From a virus, in IMG/VR virus record IMGVR_UViG_3300045911_000155, positions 1 to 64,000 of that record: a stretch of 64,000 nucleotides of DNA; one strand, given 5' to 3'. Below the pieces are notes generated by a model. That model saw nothing but the letters and a program-made list of their open reading frames with translations, was not told the origin of the DNA and searched no databases. The translations under genes and the position numbers were made by a program. The number at the start of each line of letters is the position of its first letter. Position 1 is the stretch's first letter. Of this stretch, positions 16,492-61,173 are shown one piece after another.

Positions 16492-16563
16492 GCGCGGGGA
16501 GACTCGAACTCCCAAACACCGAATTTTAAGGACGGTAGGTCTGCCTGTTCCCGTCACGCGCCC
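16486..16563 (-). tRNA. tRNA-Leu(UAA), short variable loop
   Basis: GGGCGCG/CGCGCCT, loop CT-TAA-AA, TTCGAGT, A-CCA; anticodon stem only 3 bp. Confidence 0.75.
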
Positions 16564-16850
16564 ACAGTTGGCAGTCCACGCATTTCCCGGCGCTCTTTCT
16601 CCGTGAAGGGGAGAGTCAGTTCCGCGTCTGCATCGATGCCGTGCAACACTTTCAGATCCTTCGCCAATTCCATCGTCCACGTTCCCTTTAGCTGACGCGC
16701 ACGCGGCTTGACCAGCACTTTCGTGACGGTCATCGGAAAATTGAGTGCTTCGCCGCCGGGGAGCGGTCGTATCAGCGGCTTGGCTTTCACCGTTGTGCCC
16801 GCGATGGCACCGGCGATCATTCCGAATAGTCCGCGACGTGTGAATTTCAT
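16554..16850 (-). CDS. Tat-like signal fused to a major-capsid-protein fragment
   Basis: MKFTRRGLF N-terminus; 20/35 ungapped identity to gp23 residues 194-228 of this window. Confidence 0.8.
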   Translation of the reverse strand: MKFTRRGLFGMIAGAIAGTTVKAKPLIRPLPGGEALNFPMTVTKVLVKPRARQLKGTWTMELAKDLKVLHGIDADAELTLPFTEKERREMRGLPTVGA

Positions 16851-17451: not shown

Positions 17452-17540
17452 TGGTGGCGGAAAGGGGACTCGAACCCCTACGGTATTGCTACCACATGAC
17501 TCTCATTCATGCGCGGCTACCAAGATTACGCCATTCCGCC
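17452..17540 (-). tRNA. tRNA-Leu(GAG)
   Basis: cloverleaf, CATGA-ATGAGAG-TCATG, long V arm, CCA. Confidence 0.93.
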
Positions 17541-17547
17541 AAAGTGT

Positions 17548-17634
17548 TGGTCGCGGGAGTGGGACTCGAACCCACACGACATTTCTGCCACATGCTTCTG
17601 AGACATGCGTGGCTACCAATTACACCATCCCGCG
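17548..17634 (-). tRNA. tRNA-Leu(CAG)
   Basis: cloverleaf, loop CT-CAG-AA, CCA. Confidence 0.93.
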
Positions 17635-17637
17635 AAA

Positions 17638-17727
17638 AAAGACCAGAACTTTCATCATCCACCGTCAAGCGGTTTGCCCGCCGCAATTGTTTTGGGCCTT
17701 GGAATTAAACCAAGCGCTCTGATCTTT
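17638..17727 (-). ncRNA. structured spacer RNA, possible permuted tRNA-like (YrlA-type) fold
   Basis: 12-bp closing stem AAAGATCAGAGC/GTTCTGGTCTTT; internal T-arm-like CTTGG-TTTAATT-CCAAG. Confidence 0.45.
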
Positions 17728-17812
17728 TGGTGGCCGAAGAGAGACTTGAACTCTCACGCCCGAAGGCACCGGGTTTTGAATCCGGGGCGTCTGCCAATTC
17801 CGCCATTCGGCC
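17728..17812 (-). tRNA. tRNA-Leu(CAA)
   Basis: cloverleaf, loop TT-CAA-AA, CCA. Confidence 0.93.
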
Positions 17813-17912
17813 ATTTGTGGAAGCCTTTCACTTCACTTGACCATTCTGGATCGCCAGTATGATTACCCCGCCGATGAACGTTTCACTAGTACCGTGCATC
17901 GGAACATCGATT

Positions 17913-18000
17913 TGGTAGCGGGAGTGGGACTCGAACCCACACGACATTTCTGCCACTAATTTTTGAGACTAGCGCGGCTACCGGATTACGCCATCCCGCC
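17913..18000 (-). tRNA. tRNA-Leu(CAA), second copy
   Basis: cloverleaf, loop CT-CAA-AA; V/T arms identical to tRNA-Leu(CAG). Confidence 0.93.
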
Positions 18001-18004
18001 ATGT

Positions 18005-18220
18005 TCAACGATTTATCACACCCCATGAAGCTCCGCAAGGTGAAGTGGGGAAGCCGCACCCTTCGAGTTGATCCCGGACCCATTCAGCTTTCTGTTCGTT
18101 CGTCATTTTGCTGAAGTGATCTGAGTATTCTTTGCTGGTGACCAGCATCGTGATCTGAAAACAGATATCAACCAACTTCTGTTCCCGTCCTTCAGGTGTC
18201 AGTTCCGTTCGTGCGGCCAT
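18005..18220 (-). CDS. small hypothetical protein inside tRNA operon
   Basis: 71-aa ORF filling the spacer, AGGG SD. Confidence 0.55.
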   Translation of the reverse strand: MAARTELTPEGREQKLVDICFQITMLVTSKEYSDHFSKMTNEQKAEWVRDQLEGCGFPTSPCGASWGVINR

Positions 18221-18234
18221 GACCCTATTGTAGT

Positions 18235-18318
18235 TGGTGGGCGCGAAGGGATTCGAACCCTTACGCCGAAAGGCACTAGTTCCTAAGACTAGCGTGTCTG
18301 CCGTTCCACCACGCGCCC
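18235..18318 (-). tRNA. tRNA-Leu(UAG)
   Basis: cloverleaf, loop CT-TAG-GA, CCA. Confidence 0.94.
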
Positions 18319-18319
18319 G

Positions 18320-18397
18320 TGGTCGGATCTGATGGACGCTACCCATCTCCCATGTGTCCCCGATTTGGACACCGCGACCGCTTGTCGCTAAGACCCG
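18320..18397 (-). ncRNA. degenerate tRNA-Pro-like cloverleaf
   Basis: acceptor CGGGTCT/AGATCCG + A-CCA, 5-bp D stem, non-canonical T loop GTAGCGT. Confidence 0.7.
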
Positions 18398-18401
18398 TTA
18401 A

Positions 18402-18479
18402 AACCGTAAGCAAATTGAGTAGGCCACGGAATGTTTTTCAACCATAGAAAGATAACCATGACCAGTTCGGCTTACAGTT
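18402..18479 (-). ncRNA. Y-RNA-like hairpin
   Basis: 10-bp end stem AACTGTAAGC/GCTTACGGTT, then CGAA, second stem GGTCATGG/CCGTGGCC. Confidence 0.55.
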
Positions 18480-18557
18480 TGGTCTAGGTGGCGGGAATCG
18501 AACCCGCTTGAATGTCCTGTTCCCGAAACAGGCGGCTGACCTTTAGCCCACACCTAG
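18480..18557 (-). tRNA. tRNA-Pro(CGG)
   Basis: cloverleaf, loop TT-CGG-GA, C1-G72, A-CCA. Confidence 0.9.
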
Positions 18558-18580
18558 ATGAATCGTATCACAGCAAATAG

Positions 18581-18669
18581 TGGCAACGGATAGCGGGATT
18601 TGAACCCGCAGTGGCTTTTTAGGCCGACTGTTTTTGGACAGTTGTGTTTACCATTTCACGATAACCGTT
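18581..18669 (-). tRNA. atypical 8/5 tRNA-like RNA, G73, long V arm, 6-nt anticodon loop
   Basis: AACGGTTA/TATCCGTT acceptor, ACTGT-CCAAAA-ACAGT, GGC-CTAAAAA-GCC, TTCAAAT, G-CCA. Confidence 0.7.
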
Positions 18670-18692
18670 ATCCGTCCGGCTGTGACACGATT

Positions 18693-18769
18693 TGGTCGGG
18701 AAGGCGGGAATCGAACCCGCTCGATGTCCTGTCCCCCAGACAGGCGGCTCACCTTTAGCCCACTTCCCG
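18693..18769 (-). tRNA. tRNA-Pro(GGG)
   Basis: cloverleaf, loop CT-GGG-GG, CCA. Confidence 0.92.
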
Positions 18770-18858
18770 AATGCGCGGACAAACATCGTCCGCAAAACTC
18801 GTTTCTCTCATTCAGTTGTCAAATACCAGTTGCTCTCATCGTCTGCACGATGTCGGCT

Positions 18859-18934
18859 TGGTCGGGGACACGGGACTCGAACCCGCATCTTCCTGTACCC
18901 AAAACAGGTGGCTTACCAATTAGCCAAATCCCCG
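18859..18934 (-). tRNA. tRNA-Pro(UGG)
   Basis: cloverleaf, loop TT-TGG-GT, CCA. Confidence 0.93.
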
Positions 18935-18940
18935 AAAGAT

Positions 18941-19017
18941 TGGTCGGGCATGCAGGATTTGAACCTGCGACTTCACCGTCCCGAACGGTGCGCTCTACCA
19001 AGCTGAGCCAATGCCCG
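18941..19017 (-). tRNA. tRNA-Pro(CGG), second copy
   Basis: canonical cloverleaf, loop TT-CGG-GA, CCA. Confidence 0.95.
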
Positions 19018-32894: not shown

Positions 32895-34145
32895 TTAGAC
32901 CGGCGGGGTGACGCTATCGAACAGAATGCGGCCCCATCCGCCGTCCGCCATCCCAACCCAAATTCCTGTAGCGTCGCGATAGATGACCGCGCCGGTAGCA
33001 TTGCCGACCGGGGTGCCATTCAAAACCGTGAATGGATAGGTCGATCCATTCTTGAGAAGGTTGCCGGTCAGGTTGATGTTGCCATCAACGTCTAGCCGGT
33101 GATCGGGTAAGACCGTTCCCAATCCAAGCCGGTGATTCGTTGCGTCCCACCAGAAGTTTGTGTCCTGTGTGTCATTGACCGTATTGAAAAATCCGTGGCC
33201 GGTGGCGTGGATGGTCAATTGATTCTCGACATTGCGAACGACGATCCCGGTGCCGGTAGGTTGGGTCAAGATATTGTTTGAGACTGCCGGGTAAACGTTG
33301 TTGGGTCCACTGAAACTTGGCCCTAGATTGTCGATCCCGCCATTCAGGGAAACGTAGCCAAGGTACACACCGTAACCGTTCAAAGAGAAGTCGTAGCTGT
33401 TTGTATATTGAACGGCGCTGTTCGACAACGGAGCAACAATGACACCAGAATCCGGGGTGGCAATCATGACAATGTTTCCATTGTCCATATCGGCGATGAT
33501 GTTAGCCGTGGAAGAGGTTCCAAGATTGCCGCCCATCACAGCGCCGCCGGTGTAGGTCATGATGGTTCCATCAATCGGCACACCGCTCAATGAAGCGGTG
33601 AAGGTGGTTGCGCTCAGAACGTTCTCAATCGTGATCTTCTGATTCGAGAAGGAAAGATTGGTGCCGGTTCCACCCAACACTTCCACCCGCATTCCGACGC
33701 TCAAATGTTGTGTGCTCGAAACGGTGAACACAGCGGGATTCGCTGTGGATATCGCCGTGATCGGGAGCAGGATCAATTGGAATTGCGCCGCATCAAATGT
33801 GTTGCTGTATGCTGCAATTGCAGCTTTGCCGCCGCTCACATTCAGGATCGTGGAGTCTTGTGGGTCCACACTGATGGTGAGCGGCGATTCAGGAGTGTTG
33901 CCGGACGGAGTTGTCCATTGCCCCGCACCATTCAAATACACAGCCGCGTCATTCGGTAACTTGGGGGCGAAACCGTGCCGGGCGTTTGATACGTTGTTGT
34001 TCGTATTGTCGCTCAGCGTCAGGTCGGATTCGATAATGTTGCCGGTGATTGCATGGGTGGCATTCCAGTTGGAAGGACGAATGAGACTATCGTCATTTCC
34101 GTCCGGCTTGGTGGATACGAAACTGTGCGTAATGGTGAGCGGCAT
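32895..34145 (-). CDS. tail fibre/appendage protein
   Basis: N-terminal ITH.FVS.KPDG..IRPSNWNA.H anchor shared with 37557; WDATNHRLGLGT..P..LDV.G fibre repeat. Confidence 0.75.
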   Translation of the reverse strand: MPLTITHSFVSTKPDGNDDSLIRPSNWNATHAITGNIIESDLTLSDNTNNNVSNARHGFAPKLPNDAAVYLNGAGQWTTPSGNTPESPLTISVDPQDSTILNVSGGKAAIAAYSNTFDAAQFQLILLPITAISTANPAVFTVSSTQHLSVGMRVEVLGGTGTNLSFSNQKITIENVLSATTFTASLSGVPIDGTIMTYTGGAVMGGNLGTSSTANIIADMDNGNIVMIATPDSGVIVAPLSNSAVQYTNSYDFSLNGYGVYLGYVSLNGGIDNLGPSFSGPNNVYPAVSNNILTQPTGTGIVVRNVENQLTIHATGHGFFNTVNDTQDTNFWWDATNHRLGLGTVLPDHRLDVDGNINLTGNLLKNGSTYPFTVLNGTPVGNATGAVIYRDATGIWVGMADGGWGRILFDSVTPPV

Positions 34146-35016
34146 GACTAACAGGTATTTAGGCCGGTGGGTTCTGCATTGCCGCGATTTCCATTCGGGT
34201 CTTTGCCAACCATTCGACCAGCATAGCCGGGGTGACCGTCGTGAGCATGCCAGACGTGCCAAGCCACTGCCAGATACCGACTGTCATGCCGTCGATTTCC
34301 GCTTCGGTCAGTTCGTTCTTGACCGCGCCGGATACTTTTCCGATCCGGTAGGTCATATTGACGATGAACCGCATCATCAACAAGGACCGTTGCGTCGGTG
34401 TGGTGTCTTTGCTGATCTGTAGAATGTTGGGCGGTTGCATGGTCATTTGCATGCCCGCCGGGAGATCGCAGTACTGGACGACGAAACTATTGTTCTCATC
34501 GCCTAGTGTCAAGATGTCAGGGAAGTGAAGTTTAGCGGACGACGGGTCGGGTAACCCATCGGACAAAACCTTGAATTCGTTCGATGTTTCGGATGTCATC
34601 ACGATTATATACAACGACCGAAACCCGTTCTTGAACGATTCTCCCGCGCGTGCGCGTGCGCACGATGTAGAAGGCTTGTACTCCCCGGCGACGCCCGGCA
34701 AACGCCACAGGCGCGGCCAGAAGCGTCAAAAAGGCATGTCTGGTCATGTGTCCATTCTATCGCCGGGGTGATTTTCCCGCAAGGAACTCTTCGTAGGTCA
34801 CACTGACGCCGCGCGGCCCGACGCCGGTGACTAGCAAGGTTCCGGCGGACAGGCTGACGGTATGGATGCCATCCCGCCGTTTTCGGCCCGTAAACGGCTT
34901 GTACGTGATCGTTCCCTTCCCGGTGCCCTGACAGTGCAAGCACACCACGGCGACGCCTTGTGGCTCCGCAAAACCGCGATAGACGCCGGTTCCTTGACAG
35001 GACGGGCACTCAATAT

Positions 35017-35406
35017 TCAATAGTCATCTGTTGCGACATCAAAAGCCTCTACTAACAATTGTCCACTGTGTTCGAGCAACCACTGTTCCCGATACTCTTC
35101 GATGATCGGGAGAACTTCCGCCGCGTATCGGCTGTGAACGTATGCGTGATGCGTCGGGCATATCGGAATCAAGTTTTCTGGCCGGTTGTCGTTGTGGTTT
35201 CCATTCGCATGGTGAACGGCGACGATCTTCCGTTCACCGCACACGACGCATTTCTTTTCGTGGTAGGCGAAACAGGTAGACCGATAGGCATCTTCCGACC
35301 AGTTTGGATTCCGTTGCTTCGTGCGGAAGAGCCGATTGGCGCACGACCGGGAGCATGTCGTGTTGCCGGGTTTGACATCTTTGCCACAGATAGGACAGTA
35401 GACCAC
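35017..35406 (-). CDS. HNH endonuclease
   Basis: CVVCG..VHH.NGNH.DN..ENL..ICPTHH; GTG start after TAAACA. Confidence 0.85.
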   Translation of the reverse strand: MVYCPICGKDVKPGNTTCSRSCANRLFRTKQRNPNWSEDAYRSTCFAYHEKKCVVCGERKIVAVHHANGNHNDNRPENLIPICPTHHAYVHSRYAAEVLPIIEEYREQWLLEHSGQLLVEAFDVATDDY

Positions 35407-35425
35407 ACATCTGTTTAGGTGCGGC

Positions 35426-35556
35426 AAAAGCAAAGCCCGGCATTTCTGCCGGGCCTTGGTGTGATTTCAATGAGCAAGTGGGTGACTGTCGGCTGGTCTA
35501 TGTCAAGTAGGTAACCAACAATCTTCGGCTCATCTACTACTTCTCCGATTGTACCA
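35426..35556 (-). ncRNA. Y-RNA-like sRNA with own promoter and terminator
   Basis: TAAATA at 35562-35567; GATGAGC-CGAAG opposite CACTT-GCTCATT; 11-bp upper stem; terminator 35426-35455. Confidence 0.6.
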
Positions 35557-35564
35557 CGTTGTAT

Positions 35565-35960
35565 TTAGGCGAACAACTCCATCTGATCGCCGGGTGGCGG
35601 TACGGGTTCAGAAGCCTTCTCCGGGAATTTGGCGCGGTATGCGTCCACGGACAAGCTCTTCCACTTGAGGGGCTTCGCCGGGTTCTGTTGATGGAACGCC
35701 TTCAGCTTCGCCGTGAATTCGTTGAACGCCGGGCCGGGCTGAACCGTGTCTTCGGTGAGCACGATGACGTTGTTGGAAACGAGATAATCCCATACCGGTA
35801 CATTGGTCATGGACCAACGTGGTGCCGGTAGGATGCTCAGCATTTCCAAAACGATTTCGGGCGGGTACACCTTTCCGTCAAGAGTCACGAACCGCAACAA
35901 GCGGGGTTGAAAATGGACCTCTTCGACCAAGCTGAAATCAGGCAGTTGCATATTCACCAT
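35565..35960 (-). CDS. hypothetical protein
   Basis: ORF after late-like TAACTA. Confidence 0.55.
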   Translation of the reverse strand: MVNMQLPDFSLVEEVHFQPRLLRFVTLDGKVYPPEIVLEMLSILPAPRWSMTNVPVWDYLVSNNVIVLTEDTVQPGPAFNEFTAKLKAFHQQNPAKPLKWKSLSVDAYRAKFPEKASEPVPPPGDQMELFA

Positions 35961-35970
35961 TATCCGGTAG

Positions 35971-37557
35971 TTAGGTCAGCTTCAAATACTGAACGTCGAT
36001 GGACTCTGAGTTTTGGACATAGACGAACAGATTGATGACGTTCAGTCCGCTGATCGTGTGCGGCTCCACCCATGTGGTGCCATTGATTTGCCAACCACAG
36101 GTGATAACAGAACCGGAGCGAACGAACCGCAACTTGAACAGGTTGCCGGGCGGTGGTGAACCCGATGGTCCAATGTTGGTGTTGTTGTAGAAGTTCCAAT
36201 TGAACCATCCAGTGTTATTCCAGTAGTGATCTTGTGTCCACATGGTAGTTTCCGCTGGTGATACGAATTCCCCACACCGAAAGCGCTCCCACGCCGCCGC
36301 TGTCGTCGCGGAATCCAATGCCGACGAAATTTGCCAACGCTGTATTCGGCACAAATTGCACTTCGAAATTGAACGCTCCCGATCCACCCAATCCACCGGG
36401 CCGGTACAGACCGATGGGATAGTTCTGCGTTACGCTTCCGGTGTACCCGAAAGTGAAATCGTTGCCATTGTCGGTCATCGTGTAGTTGGCGTCCGTAGGA
36501 GTTACCACGTAAGACGACAGAGCCGATGCCGATGGAATGTTTGGATTGCGGTACGGAATCGAAGTGCCGTATTGTCCAGTCACATACCAGTTATCACCAT
36601 CTGATTGAATTTCGCGATAGGCATATTGGGTGTTCAGGTTGACTGTCGTTTCACCGTCGATGGTGTCCGGGGCGACGGGTGTGATGTAGACGGTGTTAGT
36701 TGTGCCTTTCACCTTGGCAATGTACTTCTTGCCGGTGTAAGAAGCGGCGGGCGGCAAATTGACAATGACGTGATCCGTTGTTTGGTCGCAGACAATCGTG
36801 CCGTCTGTTGGCAGAACAGTGTATGGTGAGTTCGTGTGGTTGATCGTGACGATCTTGGAAGATTCACCAAGCGACATCAGATCCCAGGGGTCACGTCCGG
36901 GGCTTGATTGGTCGTGTTGCCCAAACACACATAGGACGATCCGTTGTAGGAAACCACATCATACGGCACATATGCGGTCGCATTTGACCAAACACCAAGC
37001 CAAGTGAACCCTTGACCATCGGCACCCGCCGCACCCGCCGGGCCTGTCGCACCGGTTGCACCGGTTGCACCAGTCTGCCCCTTGACGGCATAGAGGGTAG
37101 TTCCATCCGGCGTCAGGAACTCTTGCATCGTCACGGCATTGGCCGTTGTGTCTACTGCATTCCCGCCCACCACGTTGCCCGGCCATGCGAACGTATGCCC
37201 GCCCGCATTGTTCTGGACGATGAAGAAGGTGATTCGCTGCCCGGCGGTCAAGTTGCTGACCGTGCTCGAAGTCACGTTGCCGGTCAAGACGATGCGGAAT
37301 TGATTGCCTAGTGCTGCGTCAAATGTCGGAGTGGCGGAAAAGGTGACTGTCGTGACGTTCCCACTCACCCGCCCATTGAAAGTGTTGTACCCCGTCCACG
37401 TGTTGTTCCCCGTCCACGTGTTGTTCCCGGCAAGCTGTTCGGTGCCAAGTGTGCCGGTGACGGTGTGCGCTGCATTCCAGTTCGACGGTCGAATCTTCGT
37501 CGGGTCCGGGCCGTCCGGTTTGGCGGAAACGAAGGGGTGTGTGATTGACAGTGCCAT
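35971..37557 (-). CDS. tail fibre/appendage protein split by two frameshifts (near 36880 and 36240-36290)
   Basis: anchor domain, NNTWTG repeats, collagen GATGAT, CBM-like repeat, LPPAAS..GK domain, lectin-like C-terminus. Confidence 0.75.
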
Positions 37558-37598
37558 GACTGTCGTATTTAGGGTGGTATAATAGATCAGCTTCTCAT

Positions 37599-37805
37599 AT
37601 GAAGATCAAAAACCTCTTGAAAGACATTCTCGAAGGCTCCGTCCAAGTGCCGGACCAAGTGTGGAGTTTTGCATGGGACCGGGGAAACCGCCAGAACGTC
37701 CGGTTCCCCAAGGACGCATACGAAGCGATCCGGCTGAACGATGAATTTATGCTGGTCCGGGTGCCGAAGCAATCGCGCCCGGCTGAAGAGGCAAAGACCG
37801 CGTGA
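37599..37805 (+). CDS. small hypothetical protein
   Basis: TATAAT upstream; GTGA-coupled to next gene. Confidence 0.6.
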   Translation: MKIKNLLKDILEGSVQVPDQVWSFAWDRGNRQNVRFPKDAYEAIRLNDEFMLVRVPKQSRPAEEAKTA

Positions 37806-38026
37806 CGCTTCAGGACGCCATCAAGCGCGGCTGGTGTCCGTATCTGTTCCGGGAAGTGGAACGGGAGAACAAAGCAAAGCGGCGGCTAGATCCTTTGATG
37901 GGTCGAATCAGGGATTTATTGCCCGGACTGATCCATCATCAGATTGCGCCGCCGCAACCTTTGCTTGGAGAGACTTCGCGAATTTTTAGCCTTCGCGTTC
38001 GGCCTTCATCATTTCCTTCAGGCTAG
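37802..38026 (+). CDS. stand-alone Gol-like major-capsid fragment protein
   Basis: 14/37 identity (1 gap) to gp23 residues 73-109 of this window. Confidence 0.7.
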   Translation: MTLQDAIKRGWCPYLFREVERENKAKRRLDPLMGRIRDLLPGLIHHQIAPPQPLLGETSRIFSLRVRPSSFPSG

Positions 38027-38312
38027 AGTATCCTTTCCGCCGGGCTTCACGGTGCCGGGCCTTCATGAGCTTGGAGAGTTTCGCGCGCCCTTCGCTGGTC
38101 ATGCGTTCGGCGATGGCATTCGGAATTTTCGGTGCCTTGTCGCTTTTCGTGGTGACCTTGACGCCGAAGGAACGAAGCGCTTTGTTGATGGCTTTCAATT
38201 CGCTCTGCCCGTCTTTGAGTGCGGTCTTTGCATCCGCGACCTGTTTGGCGGCTTGCGTCTGAGCCTGTTTGAGAAGCGACACCACGTCATTGATTGTTTT
38301 TGATTGCTGCAT
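37986..38312 (-). CDS. basic coiled-coil, nucleoid-associated-like protein
   Basis: coiled coil plus RMTSEGRAKLSKLMKARH motif. Confidence 0.55.
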   Translation of the reverse strand: MQQSKTINDVVSLLKQAQTQAAKQVADAKTALKDGQSELKAINKALRSFGVKVTTKSDKAPKIPNAIAERMTSEGRAKLSKLMKARHREARRKGYSSLKEMMKAEREG

Positions 38313-38531
38313 TGCGCTTGTCCTGTCTGAGAAATTCCAAGGCGACGCCTTGTCTGTACACTTCGCGGGTCGTCGGGCTGATCCACTGAATCCTCCACAT
38401 GCATCCGACCTTCCGGCGGGAGTACACCCGCCATCCGGCCTTGTGAAGTTTCTGTTGATCTTTGGACGGGATGAATTTGTTGCCCCGTCCATCATAGATT
38501 TGTTCGGTCGGTTGAGACATCGTGTTTCCTT

Positions 38532-39233
38532 TTAGGCGTACCAAGAGCAGTACTTTGGCTTGCCGTCCCACTTCGAAGCGTTGCCGTGGTCCATCTTGAC
38601 GCTGGTCGCGGTGCTCATGCGCTTGGTCAGGACCGGCGCATCGGCAAGGAAGGCATTCGGCACGGCTTCCATGTTGCAAGCCATGTTGTGCTTCATGTCG
38701 TCGTGGGCGGACGGCACCGGGCGGCTGGTGATTTCCCGGATCTTGACACCCTTCGGGGTCAGGCCGATCACCTGAAAGAAGTCGCAGTTGGTCTGTTCGT
38801 ATCCCCAAGAGTAGTGGAGAACATCACCGACTGCCAATTCACAGGTGACCGCTTTCCGTTCGGCCTTGCGCTGTTCGACGCGCTGGACGCGGGCAGTTTC
38901 GTCGTTCTTGATGCGGAGCAAGTATCCCGCCCGTTCATGCTCAGTGCGGAACCGGTAGAAGGCCATCGGCTTGGTCGCCCGGCCCCGGTAAACCTTGAGG
39001 ATGAAACCGCGTTCGTTCGTGTAGAGGAAGATGAACAGTCCGCCGTGAACTTCGTTCGGGCGGACAATCGTCATGATCGGGGCGGCACCGCCGCCAAACT
39101 GAAGGGTCTGACCGGGCTGGATGCCCTTGATGGCGTTGATAATCTCTTCGTCATCGGCATTGGCTTCGAGCAGTTCAGCGGTACGCACCGGCTGACCGTT
39201 CAACATCAGGATTTCGGGAAGTTCGTTGTTCAT
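38532..39233 (-). CDS. early hypothetical protein
   Basis: cassette promoter 39266-39279; SWGYEQTN.DFFQV motif. Confidence 0.75.
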   Translation of the reverse strand: MNNELPEILMLNGQPVRTAELLEANADDEEIINAIKGIQPGQTLQFGGGAAPIMTIVRPNEVHGGLFIFLYTNERGFILKVYRGRATKPMAFYRFRTEHERAGYLLRIKNDETARVQRVEQRKAERKAVTCELAVGDVLHYSWGYEQTNCDFFQVIGLTPKGVKIREITSRPVPSAHDDMKHNMACNMEAVPNAFLADAPVLTKRMSTATSVKMDHGNASKWDGKPKYCSWYA

Positions 39234-59838: not shown

Positions 59839-61173
59839 TTAGGTGAGGTTGATGACCTTGACCAAGCGGTAGTACGGGTTGCTGGCGCTGATGATGTCGC
59901 CCGAAGCGTTCGTGTAGTACGGGTTCGACACAAGGCCGTAACGGGTACGGAACGCAATCTTCGGCTGGAGGGTGTTTTCACCGACCGCACGAACCATCTG
60001 GAGCGGGATGTAGGGGCAGTAGAAGAAGCCCGCGTCGTAGGCATTAGTACCTTTGTACCCTACCATTAGGAGTTCGGTATTAAGGTCGCCCGTGTTGTCG
60101 AAGTACGGATCAACGAAGACCTTGTAGCGACCGTTGATAACGCCCGCGAAGGTGTTGCCCGTGTCATCGACCGTCAGGTTGGTGTTCAACGCCGGGGCGT
60201 AGTTCAGGACACCCGCCATGTGCAACGCGGACGCAACGTCCGAAGAGCACACGATGAAGTTACCCTTACCACGACGGGTGTCACGACCGATCTGGTTCGC
60301 GTCACGCTCGACTTGGAACATCAAGCCCTTGAACTTTTCAGCCAACCAACGACCGTTGGAGTCCGTGTCAAGGTCAAACACACCAGCGTTAGCGGTGCCC
60401 TTCTGAGCGCCCGGCTTCGCGATGTAGTACAAGGTGCGAACAACTTCACGGTTGATTTCGGCCAAGATTTCCGTGGAGAGAATCGAAGCCAATTCCGTTT
60501 CGGCGTCCATACCGTGCAGGGCCTTAAGATCCTGCGCCAGTTCGACAGTGTATTCTGCCTTCAGTGCGCGGGTCTTCGCCGTGACGGTAACCTTGTCGAT
60601 GAAGATCGACATTTCGTTGAACGACGGCTGGTTCGTTTCGCCAAGGACTTCACCTTGCAGCGTGGTCATACCGCGACCAGTTGCGTAACCACCGGCAAAC
60701 GGGTTGCTACCGCTGTGGGCAGTACCGTTGTGACCGGCGTTCGGTGCGCCCGGCTTCTGACCGGCGAAGTCCGTGTCGGATTCCGACATGAAGGCTTCGT
60801 TGGTCTGGTTGTAGTTGGTGGACGAAGACTGCGGGCCGTACTTCGAACGCATCGCGAAGATGAGTCCAGTCGGACCAGTCATCGGCTGAACACCACAGAT
60901 GTCGTATGCAACAAGGTTCGGCATCGCGCGACGCACCATCGAAATCATGATGGGGTCCCACGCACCGATGTTTCCGCCGCCCATCGTGTTGCTGCCTTCC
61001 GACAACAACTGTGCCTTCTGTTCCTTCAGATCACGATATTGATTTTCGAGGATCTGAATGGTGACATCGCGACGGTGTGCATCGACCTTGCCCTGAAGAT
61101 CGGTGATCTTCGGCATGTCCGTGTGATCAATGATTTTCTGCCATTTTGAGCGTAGTGCAGGTGAGAGGTTCAT
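59839..61173 (-). CDS. gp23: major capsid protein
   Basis: DICGVQPMTGPTGLIFAMR, RALKAEYTVELAQDLKALHG.DAE.EL, FYCPY.PL, RTRYG. Confidence 0.98.
   Translation of the reverse strand: MNLSPALRSKWQKIIDHTDMPKITDLQGKVDAHRRDVTIQILENQYRDLKEQKAQLLSEGSNTMGGGNIGAWDPIMISMVRRAMPNLVAYDICGVQPMTGPTGLIFAMRSKYGPQSSSTNYNQTNEAFMSESDTDFAGQKPGAPNAGHNGTAHSGSNPFAGGYATGRGMTTLQGEVLGETNQPSFNEMSIFIDKVTVTAKTRALKAEYTVELAQDLKALHGMDAETELASILSTEILAEINREVVRTLYYIAKPGAQKGTANAGVFDLDTDSNGRWLAEKFKGLMFQVERDANQIGRDTRRGKGNFIVCSSDVASALHMAGVLNYAPALNTNLTVDDTGNTFAGVINGRYKVFVDPYFDNTGDLNTELLMVGYKGTNAYDAGFFYCPYIPLQMVRAVGENTLQPKIAFRTRYGLVSNPYYTNASGDIISASNPYYRLVKVINLT

Follow-up and report, generated by a model that had tools for sequence, protein, structure and literature searches.

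Why does a T4-like phage carry a small gene that resembles a short stretch of its own major capsid protein, and does that gene truly descend from the capsid gene? The question arises for a 74-codon open reading frame, here orf74, in the first 64 kb (the window) of an 80.6-kb IMG/VR viral contig (G000) that is about 47% complete. The source phage is T4-like, and the major capsid protein gp23 encoded in the window shares 56-59% identity with its closest cultured relatives (Pelagibacter phage Mosig, Methylophilales phage Melnitz and Stenotrophomonas DLP_6). Further gp23 sequences (P0003-P0007) are 77-96% identical to it. DNA runs containing this stretch derive from metagenomes of hot springs, microbial mats and fresh water. 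As a point of comparison we used G001, a 224-kb relative (96% complete), whose gp23 is 98% identical to that of the window. The features on which the analysis turns are the following:

37556-37583, + strand: sigma70-type promoter-like site, ATGACT, 16 nt, TG-n-TATAAT (extended -10), 15 nt before orf68
37599-37805, + strand: orf68, 68 aa, first gene of a two-gene cassette, its TGA stop overlapping the orf74 start
37802-38026, + strand: orf74, 74 codons, GTG start (ATG in G001)
37802-37849, + strand: opening 16 codons of orf74, similar to the gp23 start (M-x-L...W-x-P/K-x-L/I pattern)
37889-38002, + strand: orf74 codons 30-67, the gp23-like segment, corresponding to residues 73-111 of the phage's own gp23
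37986-38315, - strand: convergent 109-aa gene, its 3' end overlapping the last 13 orf74 codons (41 nt)
59839-61173, - strand: major capsid gene gp23, 444 aa (Pfam Gp23, E 1.4e-141)
60847-60957, - strand: gp23 segment resembled by orf74 (residues 73-109), inside the major capsid gene

Setting of the orf68-orf74 cassette

The two genes orf68 and orf74 form a small island on the + strand amid minus-strand genes. Divergently oriented tail-fibre-like genes with collagen repeats and a CBM5/12 module lie upstream (36215-37557), and 21.8 kb separate orf74 from the gp23 gene, in agreement with the roughly 22 kb given in an earlier, sequence-only reading of this DNA. That reading had also described orf74 as GTGA-coupled to its upstream gene. 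Indeed, the GTG start of orf74 and the TGA stop of orf68 share the letters GTGA, and G001 has the same 4-nt overlap in a fully syntenic cassette with both reading frames intact (orf74 orthologue at L003:6218-6454, - strand, 78 aa). The sigma70-type unit proposed earlier corresponds to the extended -10 site in front of orf68, which matches the consensus at 10 of 12 positions and carries the TG extension; one such site was found where 0.3 would be expected, as a pattern match only. Sequence conservation between the window and G001 starts exactly at the -10 box, with everything downstream kept and the upstream sequence unrelated. Because conservation begins at this box and the gene upstream of it differs, the promoter, orf68 and orf74 behave as one unit. 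A sigma70-type, early-looking promoter probably drives transcription of orf74, whose translation is probably coupled to that of orf68. Early expression of orf74 is plausible, since the gene sits behind a sigma70-type extended -10 pattern. The synteny break at this -10 box maps to 37540-37600 in the window and to L003:6660-6710 in G001; the upstream neighbour in G001 is a different gene of 245 aa (L003:6705-7442) that looks metallophosphoesterase-like by eye.

The first gene of the cassette is strongly conserved. orf68 is 90% identical in G001, 26 of its 34 nucleotide differences fall at third codon positions, and all four population SNPs found on contigs from three other DNA runs are synonymous. 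Two further orf68 variants exist (P0131 and P0132). Neither orf68 nor orf74 has a match in NCBIfam or PADLOC, orf68 also has none in Pfam or PHROGs, the ESM Atlas returned no usable match for either protein, and an Rfam search of positions 37000-38800 was empty. Of the features of a type II toxin-antitoxin pair, the 4-nt overlap alone fits; neither protein matches a toxin or antitoxin family in Pfam, PHROGs, NCBIfam or PADLOC, and both structural models are poor (pLDDT 51.9 for the AlphaFold2 model of orf68). A complex prediction for orf68 with orf74 scored 0.01, which weighs neither way on whether the two proteins bind each other. By eye, the second half of orf68 recalls swapped-hairpin proteins of the AbrB/MazE type; we found no match that supports this likeness.

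Resemblance of orf74 to the major capsid protein

The sequence-only reading had aligned orf74 to gp23 with 14 identities and one gap. BLASTP reproduces this match, pairing residues 30-67 of orf74 with residues 73-111 of the phage's own gp23 (14/39 identities, one gap, E 5e-7 for this single comparison). From 116 gp23 sequences we derived a profile that covers residues 60-130 and searched it against all 4375 stop-to-stop frames of both genomes. orf74 scored 17.7-17.9 bits (E 4.9e-4) and its G001 orthologue was the next-best frame, making these two the best non-gp23 frames in both genomes. The two best-ranked PHROGs families for orf74 were both major head proteins, with phrog_138 first (E 0.059). 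A tblastn search of 50,697 phage records (2.3 Gb) placed every match listed at the same site of major capsid genes, with 50% identity over 34 aa and an E-value of 0.05. Pfam likewise ranked Gp23 first (profile positions 8-43, 11.9 bits, E 0.15).

Could a resemblance of this size be coincidental? The alignment covers only 37-39 residues, and none of the library-wide E-values for orf74 and gp23 lies below 0.01 (0.05-0.15). An hhalign comparison of the two orthologues with a 36-sequence gp23 alignment gave an E-value of 0.0011 at a probability of only 20%, and a PDB search with the two-sequence orf74 profile failed to recover T4 gp23, returning chance-level matches only. Against coincidence, not one of 5000 shuffled versions of orf74 reached the real profile score, the best of them ending at 8.2 bits, about 10 bits lower. 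In addition, gp23 comes first at the same site in four different libraries, and much stronger gp23 fragments occur in the same genomes (see below). The G001 orthologue, which on its own has no Pfam or PHROGs match, independently aligns to the gp23 of a relative with 17/48 identities. We thus disfavor a chance resemblance, which we regard as very unlikely: the match is weak yet beyond chance, and orf74 in all likelihood truly descends from a gp23-type sequence.

Descent does not make orf74 a capsid protein. The Pfam gathering score for Gp23 (PF07068, 24.4 bits) is not reached, and orf74 is a derived gp23 fragment rather than a member of the Gp23 family in Pfam's sense. The profile comparison that the sequence-only reading had proposed is thus positive among the frames of the phage's own genome and by hhalign, but falls short of the Pfam threshold. 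orf74 represents only about 40 of the 444 gp23 residues, and the complete HK97-type fold with its N-arm, E-loop, P and A domains is absent. An AlphaFold2 model of low confidence (mean pLDDT 52.7) contains one long helix and a disordered tail, which suggests that the protein may be mostly unstructured.

The start of orf74 may carry a second trace of its parent. When a Met-anchored, ungapped profile of the gp23 N-terminus was scored against 12,862 candidate starts, orf74 ranked 8th and its orthologue 29th; a local HMM of gp23 residues 1-45 did not report the orf74 N-terminus. The likeness, judged from these sequence profiles, is suggestive only. If it is real, orf74 would correspond to the opening ~111 codons of a gp23 gene in shortened form. 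Nucleotide identity between the gp23-like segment of orf74 and gp23 is only 35%, and 16% at third positions. The copy must therefore be old, or come from a distant gp23. We also considered an RNA-level or antisense role for the gp23 fragments of these phages and rejected it, as their nucleotide identity to gp23 is 35-73% and exact runs do not exceed 9 nt.

Distribution of orf74 and selection acting on it

The orf74 family is known from two genomes only, in IMG/VR and in a library of 1.84 billion proteins. A word-index protein search gave no match, an exhaustive one returned only the G001 orthologue together with one repetitive false match, and scans of IMG/VR for the two proteins and for a degenerate DNA motif yielded G001 alone. 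Metagenome scans for orf74 found none, and 25 loci of more distant phages that contain the neighbouring 233-aa gene have neither orf74 nor another gp23 fragment.

Within this narrow range the gene appears to be selected. Between the two orthologues we counted 42 substitutions plus two 6-nt indels that preserve the frame, and the gene is intact in both. The substitutions comprise 19 synonymous and 23 non-synonymous changes and are spread 12/9/21 over the three codon positions, which corresponds to a dN/dS of 0.35 (binomial p 0.005 against neutrality). Contigs from three other DNA runs add eight population SNPs, four of them synonymous and four non-synonymous, and with these included the p-value becomes 0.0016. 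Translating the G001 stretch in the presumed alternative + frame meets three stops. The dN/dS values against G001 are 0.35 for orf74, 0.045 for orf68, 0.24 for the convergent 109-aa gene, 0.22 for the neighbouring 233-aa gene and 0.05 for gp23. Constraint on orf74 is consequently the loosest among its neighbours (0.35 vs 0.05-0.24), and its protein differs from the G001 version at 22-26% of positions compared with 2% for gp23, a roughly 10 times faster change. The convergent gene is 84% identical in G001, where its overlap with orf74 is kept. These sequence comparisons suggest that orf74 is a real gene and that purifying selection on it is moderate, clearly weaker than on orf68. The earlier expectation of intact homologues with dN/dS below 1 is borne out by the G001 copy, the only orthologue found.

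We asked which residues are retained. The orthologue retains 13 of the 14 residues common to orf74 and gp23, as against 13 of the 22 aligned residues that are not shared (Fisher one-sided p 0.03), and the gp23-like residues of orf74 are thus preferentially kept. About 38% amino-acid identity to gp23 persists, whereas we roughly estimate that unselected decay to 35% DNA identity would leave only ~13%. As saturated DNA divergence would leave far less, the amino-acid identity to gp23 has been kept by selection, and a rough calculation at a dN/dS of 0.35 reproduces the ~38%.

These data bear on the possibility that orf74 is a slowly decaying relic of an ectopic partial gp23 duplication, or of recombination with the gp23 of another phage, and that its frame is still open by chance or under weak selection. 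Such an origin would account for the occurrence in just two genomes, for a start codon that in the window is the weak GTG, for a constraint looser than that on the neighbouring genes and for the lower likeness of the G001 copy to gp23. It is difficult to reconcile with a dN/dS significantly below 1, with two indels that both preserve a frame open across 42 substitutions, with overlapping start and stop codons kept in both genomes and with an amino-acid identity to gp23 that far exceeds the unselected expectation. We consider it improbable.

A gene that is selected need not be selected for what its parent did. The gp23 fragment may have served as raw material for a role unrelated to the binding properties of gp23, perhaps one exerted together with orf68. 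orf74 evolves fast, its orthologue contains a 2-residue insertion inside the motif, between QP..G.T and the following strand, and it is tightly coupled to the far more conserved orf68. The shared positions are mostly Pro, Gly and hydrophobic residues, which are prone to conservation in any peptide, and the N-terminal third of orf74 is not clearly gp23-like. On the other hand, the preferential retention of the shared residues speaks for the parent's identity, as do several independent head-protein pieces in small genes of the same clade, all taken from the most conserved segments. Because it is these segments that recur in small genes, the identity of the parent is hard to dismiss. A function unconnected to gp23 binding is, in our view, a serious but on balance rather unlikely alternative.

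Head-protein-fragment mini-genes and the Gol stretch

The head-protein pieces just mentioned are encoded by three further mini-genes, one in the window and two in G001, each of which combines a twin-arginine-type leader with a short fragment of gp23 or of the portal protein gp20:

16554-16850, - strand: 98-aa mini-gene, leader followed by gp23 residues ~190-230
L041:248-571 (G001 80248-80571), + strand: 107-aa mini-gene, leader followed by the last ~70 gp23 residues (Pfam 46.8 bits)
L038:15304-15591 (G001 35304-35591), - strand: 95-aa mini-gene, leader followed by portal gp20 residues 272-321

We recognized the leader by eye as T-R-R-x-hydrophobic followed by a Gly/Ala-rich hydrophobic run; searches of Pfam and NCBIfam returned no Tat-signal model for any of the three. 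The 98-aa gene in the window matches gp23 with 20/37 identities (BLASTP, E 1e-10) and scores 36.3 bits against Pfam Gp23, above the gathering score. It belongs to a six-member small-protein family (P0123-P0128). The gene has a dN/dS of 0.19, and its leader reads T-R-R-G-L-F before the Gly/Ala-rich hydrophobic run. In the 107-aa gene of G001 the leader contains T-R-R and ends A-V-Q-A, and in the 95-aa gene T-R-R is accompanied by a lipobox-like Cys; the portal match of the latter has a phmmer E-value of 5e-5 and a Pfam Portal_T4 E-value of 0.015. Comparing large with small frames genome-wide, we found fragment copies of gp23 (three times) and of the portal (once) only. A peptidase-domain match from the same comparison was judged to be ordinary domain sharing and set aside. 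Among 2577 cultured phage records that match the N-terminal stretch of gp23, only 7 extra places were found, so the design is rare in cultured phages, and our literature search found no paper describing such head-protein-fragment mini-genes.

Several of these genes have neighbours of some interest. The 98-aa gene lies just downstream of an array of ten tRNA genes (17452-19017, - strand), all of them for Leu or Pro bar one; the tRNA at 18581-18669 was left unassigned by ARAGORN, with a two-base anticodon call. The end of the 107-aa gene overlaps the start of an 87-aa lipoprotein gene by 4 nt, an arrangement reminiscent of spanin pairs, and the 95-aa gene adjoins a small membrane-type gene and a gene for a ClpP-like protease.

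Including orf74, the clade carries at least four head-protein-fragment mini-genes as judged by sequence, covering three regions of gp23 and one of the portal. Like the leader-tagged genes, orf74 is a small accessory gene of the same clade that contains a short, conserved piece of a head protein and is under purifying selection. Unlike them, it has a polar, charged N-terminus without twin-arginine-type leader or hydrophobic run, it is coupled to orf68, its start resembles the gp23 N-terminus and its match to gp23 is much weaker. As the export-type leaders are absent from orf74, the two kinds of gene may not share a function. orf74 is best regarded as a leaderless case within an undescribed group of mini-genes made from head-protein fragments; in sequence it comes closest to the Gol stretch of gp23. 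The sequence-only reading had called it a stand-alone mini-gene that mimics Gol. It is indeed a separate gene, but one coupled to a more conserved partner and accompanied by at least three others of its kind, and since the mini-genes of the clade sample three gp23 regions and the portal, Gol is not singled out.

How does the orf74 core relate to Gol itself? In an alignment with the mature chain of T4 gp23 (8t9r_A), residues 73-109 of the phage's own gp23 fall on positions 27-63. Mature T4 gp23 presumably starts at residue 66, and if so these positions are residues 92-128 of the full-length T4 protein. We take the limits of T4 Gol to be ~93-122, and with these limits residues 30-67 of orf74 are, by alignment, positionally equivalent to the Gol stretch of T4 gp23. 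The earlier description of the segment as a diverged copy of the Gol-equivalent stretch is thus upheld. Only about 12 of 29 residues are common to orf74 and the T4 Gol stretch. Of the 20-residue Gol core, 13 residues are reportedly important according to mutagenesis by Bingham et al. in 2000 and by Copeland and Kleanthous in 2005.

The Gol region lies in the first quarter of gp23 and is its most conserved part, and the 29-residue Gol peptide is active alone and binds domains II-III of EF-Tu (PMC3014915). In T4, free Gol peptide switches on the Lit protease when both are overproduced, and Kleanthous and colleagues have proposed that the Gol stretch may have a role of its own with EF-Tu (PMC3014915). 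More generally, capsid and portal proteins rank among the major triggers of bacterial immunity, which responds to them by way of Lit, CapRel and several Avs families; Lit and CapRel sense the capsid protein via short motifs, and Avs7 incorporates EF-Tu (bioRxiv 10.64898/2026.01.04.697583). The likeness of orf74 to the exclusion system formed by Gol, EF-Tu and the Lit protease of prophage e14 consists in the alignment of its residues 30-67 to this stretch (T4 ~92-128). Gol in T4 belongs to the capsid protein and activates the defence, whereas orf74 is a separate gene.

The explanation that we tentatively favor, while holding it open to serious doubt, is that orf74 encodes a gp23-derived peptide mimic of some kind. 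It would be a small accessory gene of one phage lineage that arose from the 5' portion of a major capsid gene of the T4 type. The orf74 core (residues 30-67) would descend from the conserved N-terminal gp23 stretch that carries Gol in T4. The opening residues may go back to the N-terminus of gp23, in which case the intervening gp23 sequence would have been lost. The largely unstructured protein could present a gp23-like peptide before, or apart from, capsid assembly, and could compete for whatever recognizes that stretch in unassembled gp23. Candidate partners would be EF-Tu, a Lit-type sensor of capsid motifs, or a head-assembly or folding factor. The 2-residue insertion in the motif of the orthologue fits poorly with precise mimicry. 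What stands of the proposed mimicry of Gol is thus the gp23 origin, whereas strict mimicry is doubtful in view of that insertion and of an evolution roughly 10 times faster than that of gp23.

The narrower form of this explanation, an immune decoy, faces an additional difficulty. Free Gol peptide activates Lit in T4, and a mimic could therefore harm the phage. A decoy would need changes from Gol, because the free peptide switches Lit on and not off. By analogy with these systems, one might imagine orf74 and the leader-tagged gp23 and portal mini-genes as a set of early-made trigger look-alikes that would occupy or desensitize host sensors, the Gol-like piece then facing Lit-type proteases or sensor complexes that contain EF-Tu. 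We regard such a set as a long shot, and an immune-decoy role for orf74 as equally improbable. If true, however, it would represent a counter-defence principle that has not yet been described. A phage gene that consists of the motif only and is kept by selection would offer a simple test of whether phages titrate or pre-empt capsid sensors, and also of whether the conserved Gol stretch has its own role with EF-Tu. Even with an unrelated function, these mini-genes would indicate how phages can turn fragments of essential structural genes into new accessory proteins.

Two known systems help to place these ideas. The vertex protein gp24 (PDB 1YUE) parallels orf74 in that its gene, too, is a further descendant of the major capsid gene in T4-type phages. 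It is a full-length HK97-fold protein that is built into the capsid, whereas orf74 comprises ~40 gp23-like residues, cannot form this fold and belongs to an accessory cassette; no full-length gp24-like paralogue was detected in the window genome or in G001. The phage protein DSAD1 inhibits DSR2 and counters a defence triggered by a virion protein, the tail tube (PMC11087589). It may be considered a precedent for a phage protein directed against a virion-protein-triggered defence, comparable to the decoy role proposed for orf74. We know of no evidence that DSAD1 copies its trigger.

The genes that surround the orf68-orf74 cassette contain two minor features of their own. The tail-fibre-like genes at 32895-34262 and 36877-37557 (both on the - strand) have in common an N-terminal stretch of 43 residues with 60% identity (E 1e-11), which suggests, from the sequence, a paralogous or exchangeable fibre module. 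A gene resembling HNH homing endonucleases (35017-35433, - strand; PHROG 1271, E 6e-9) lies 2.4 kb from the cassette and is a possible agent of local gene shuffling.
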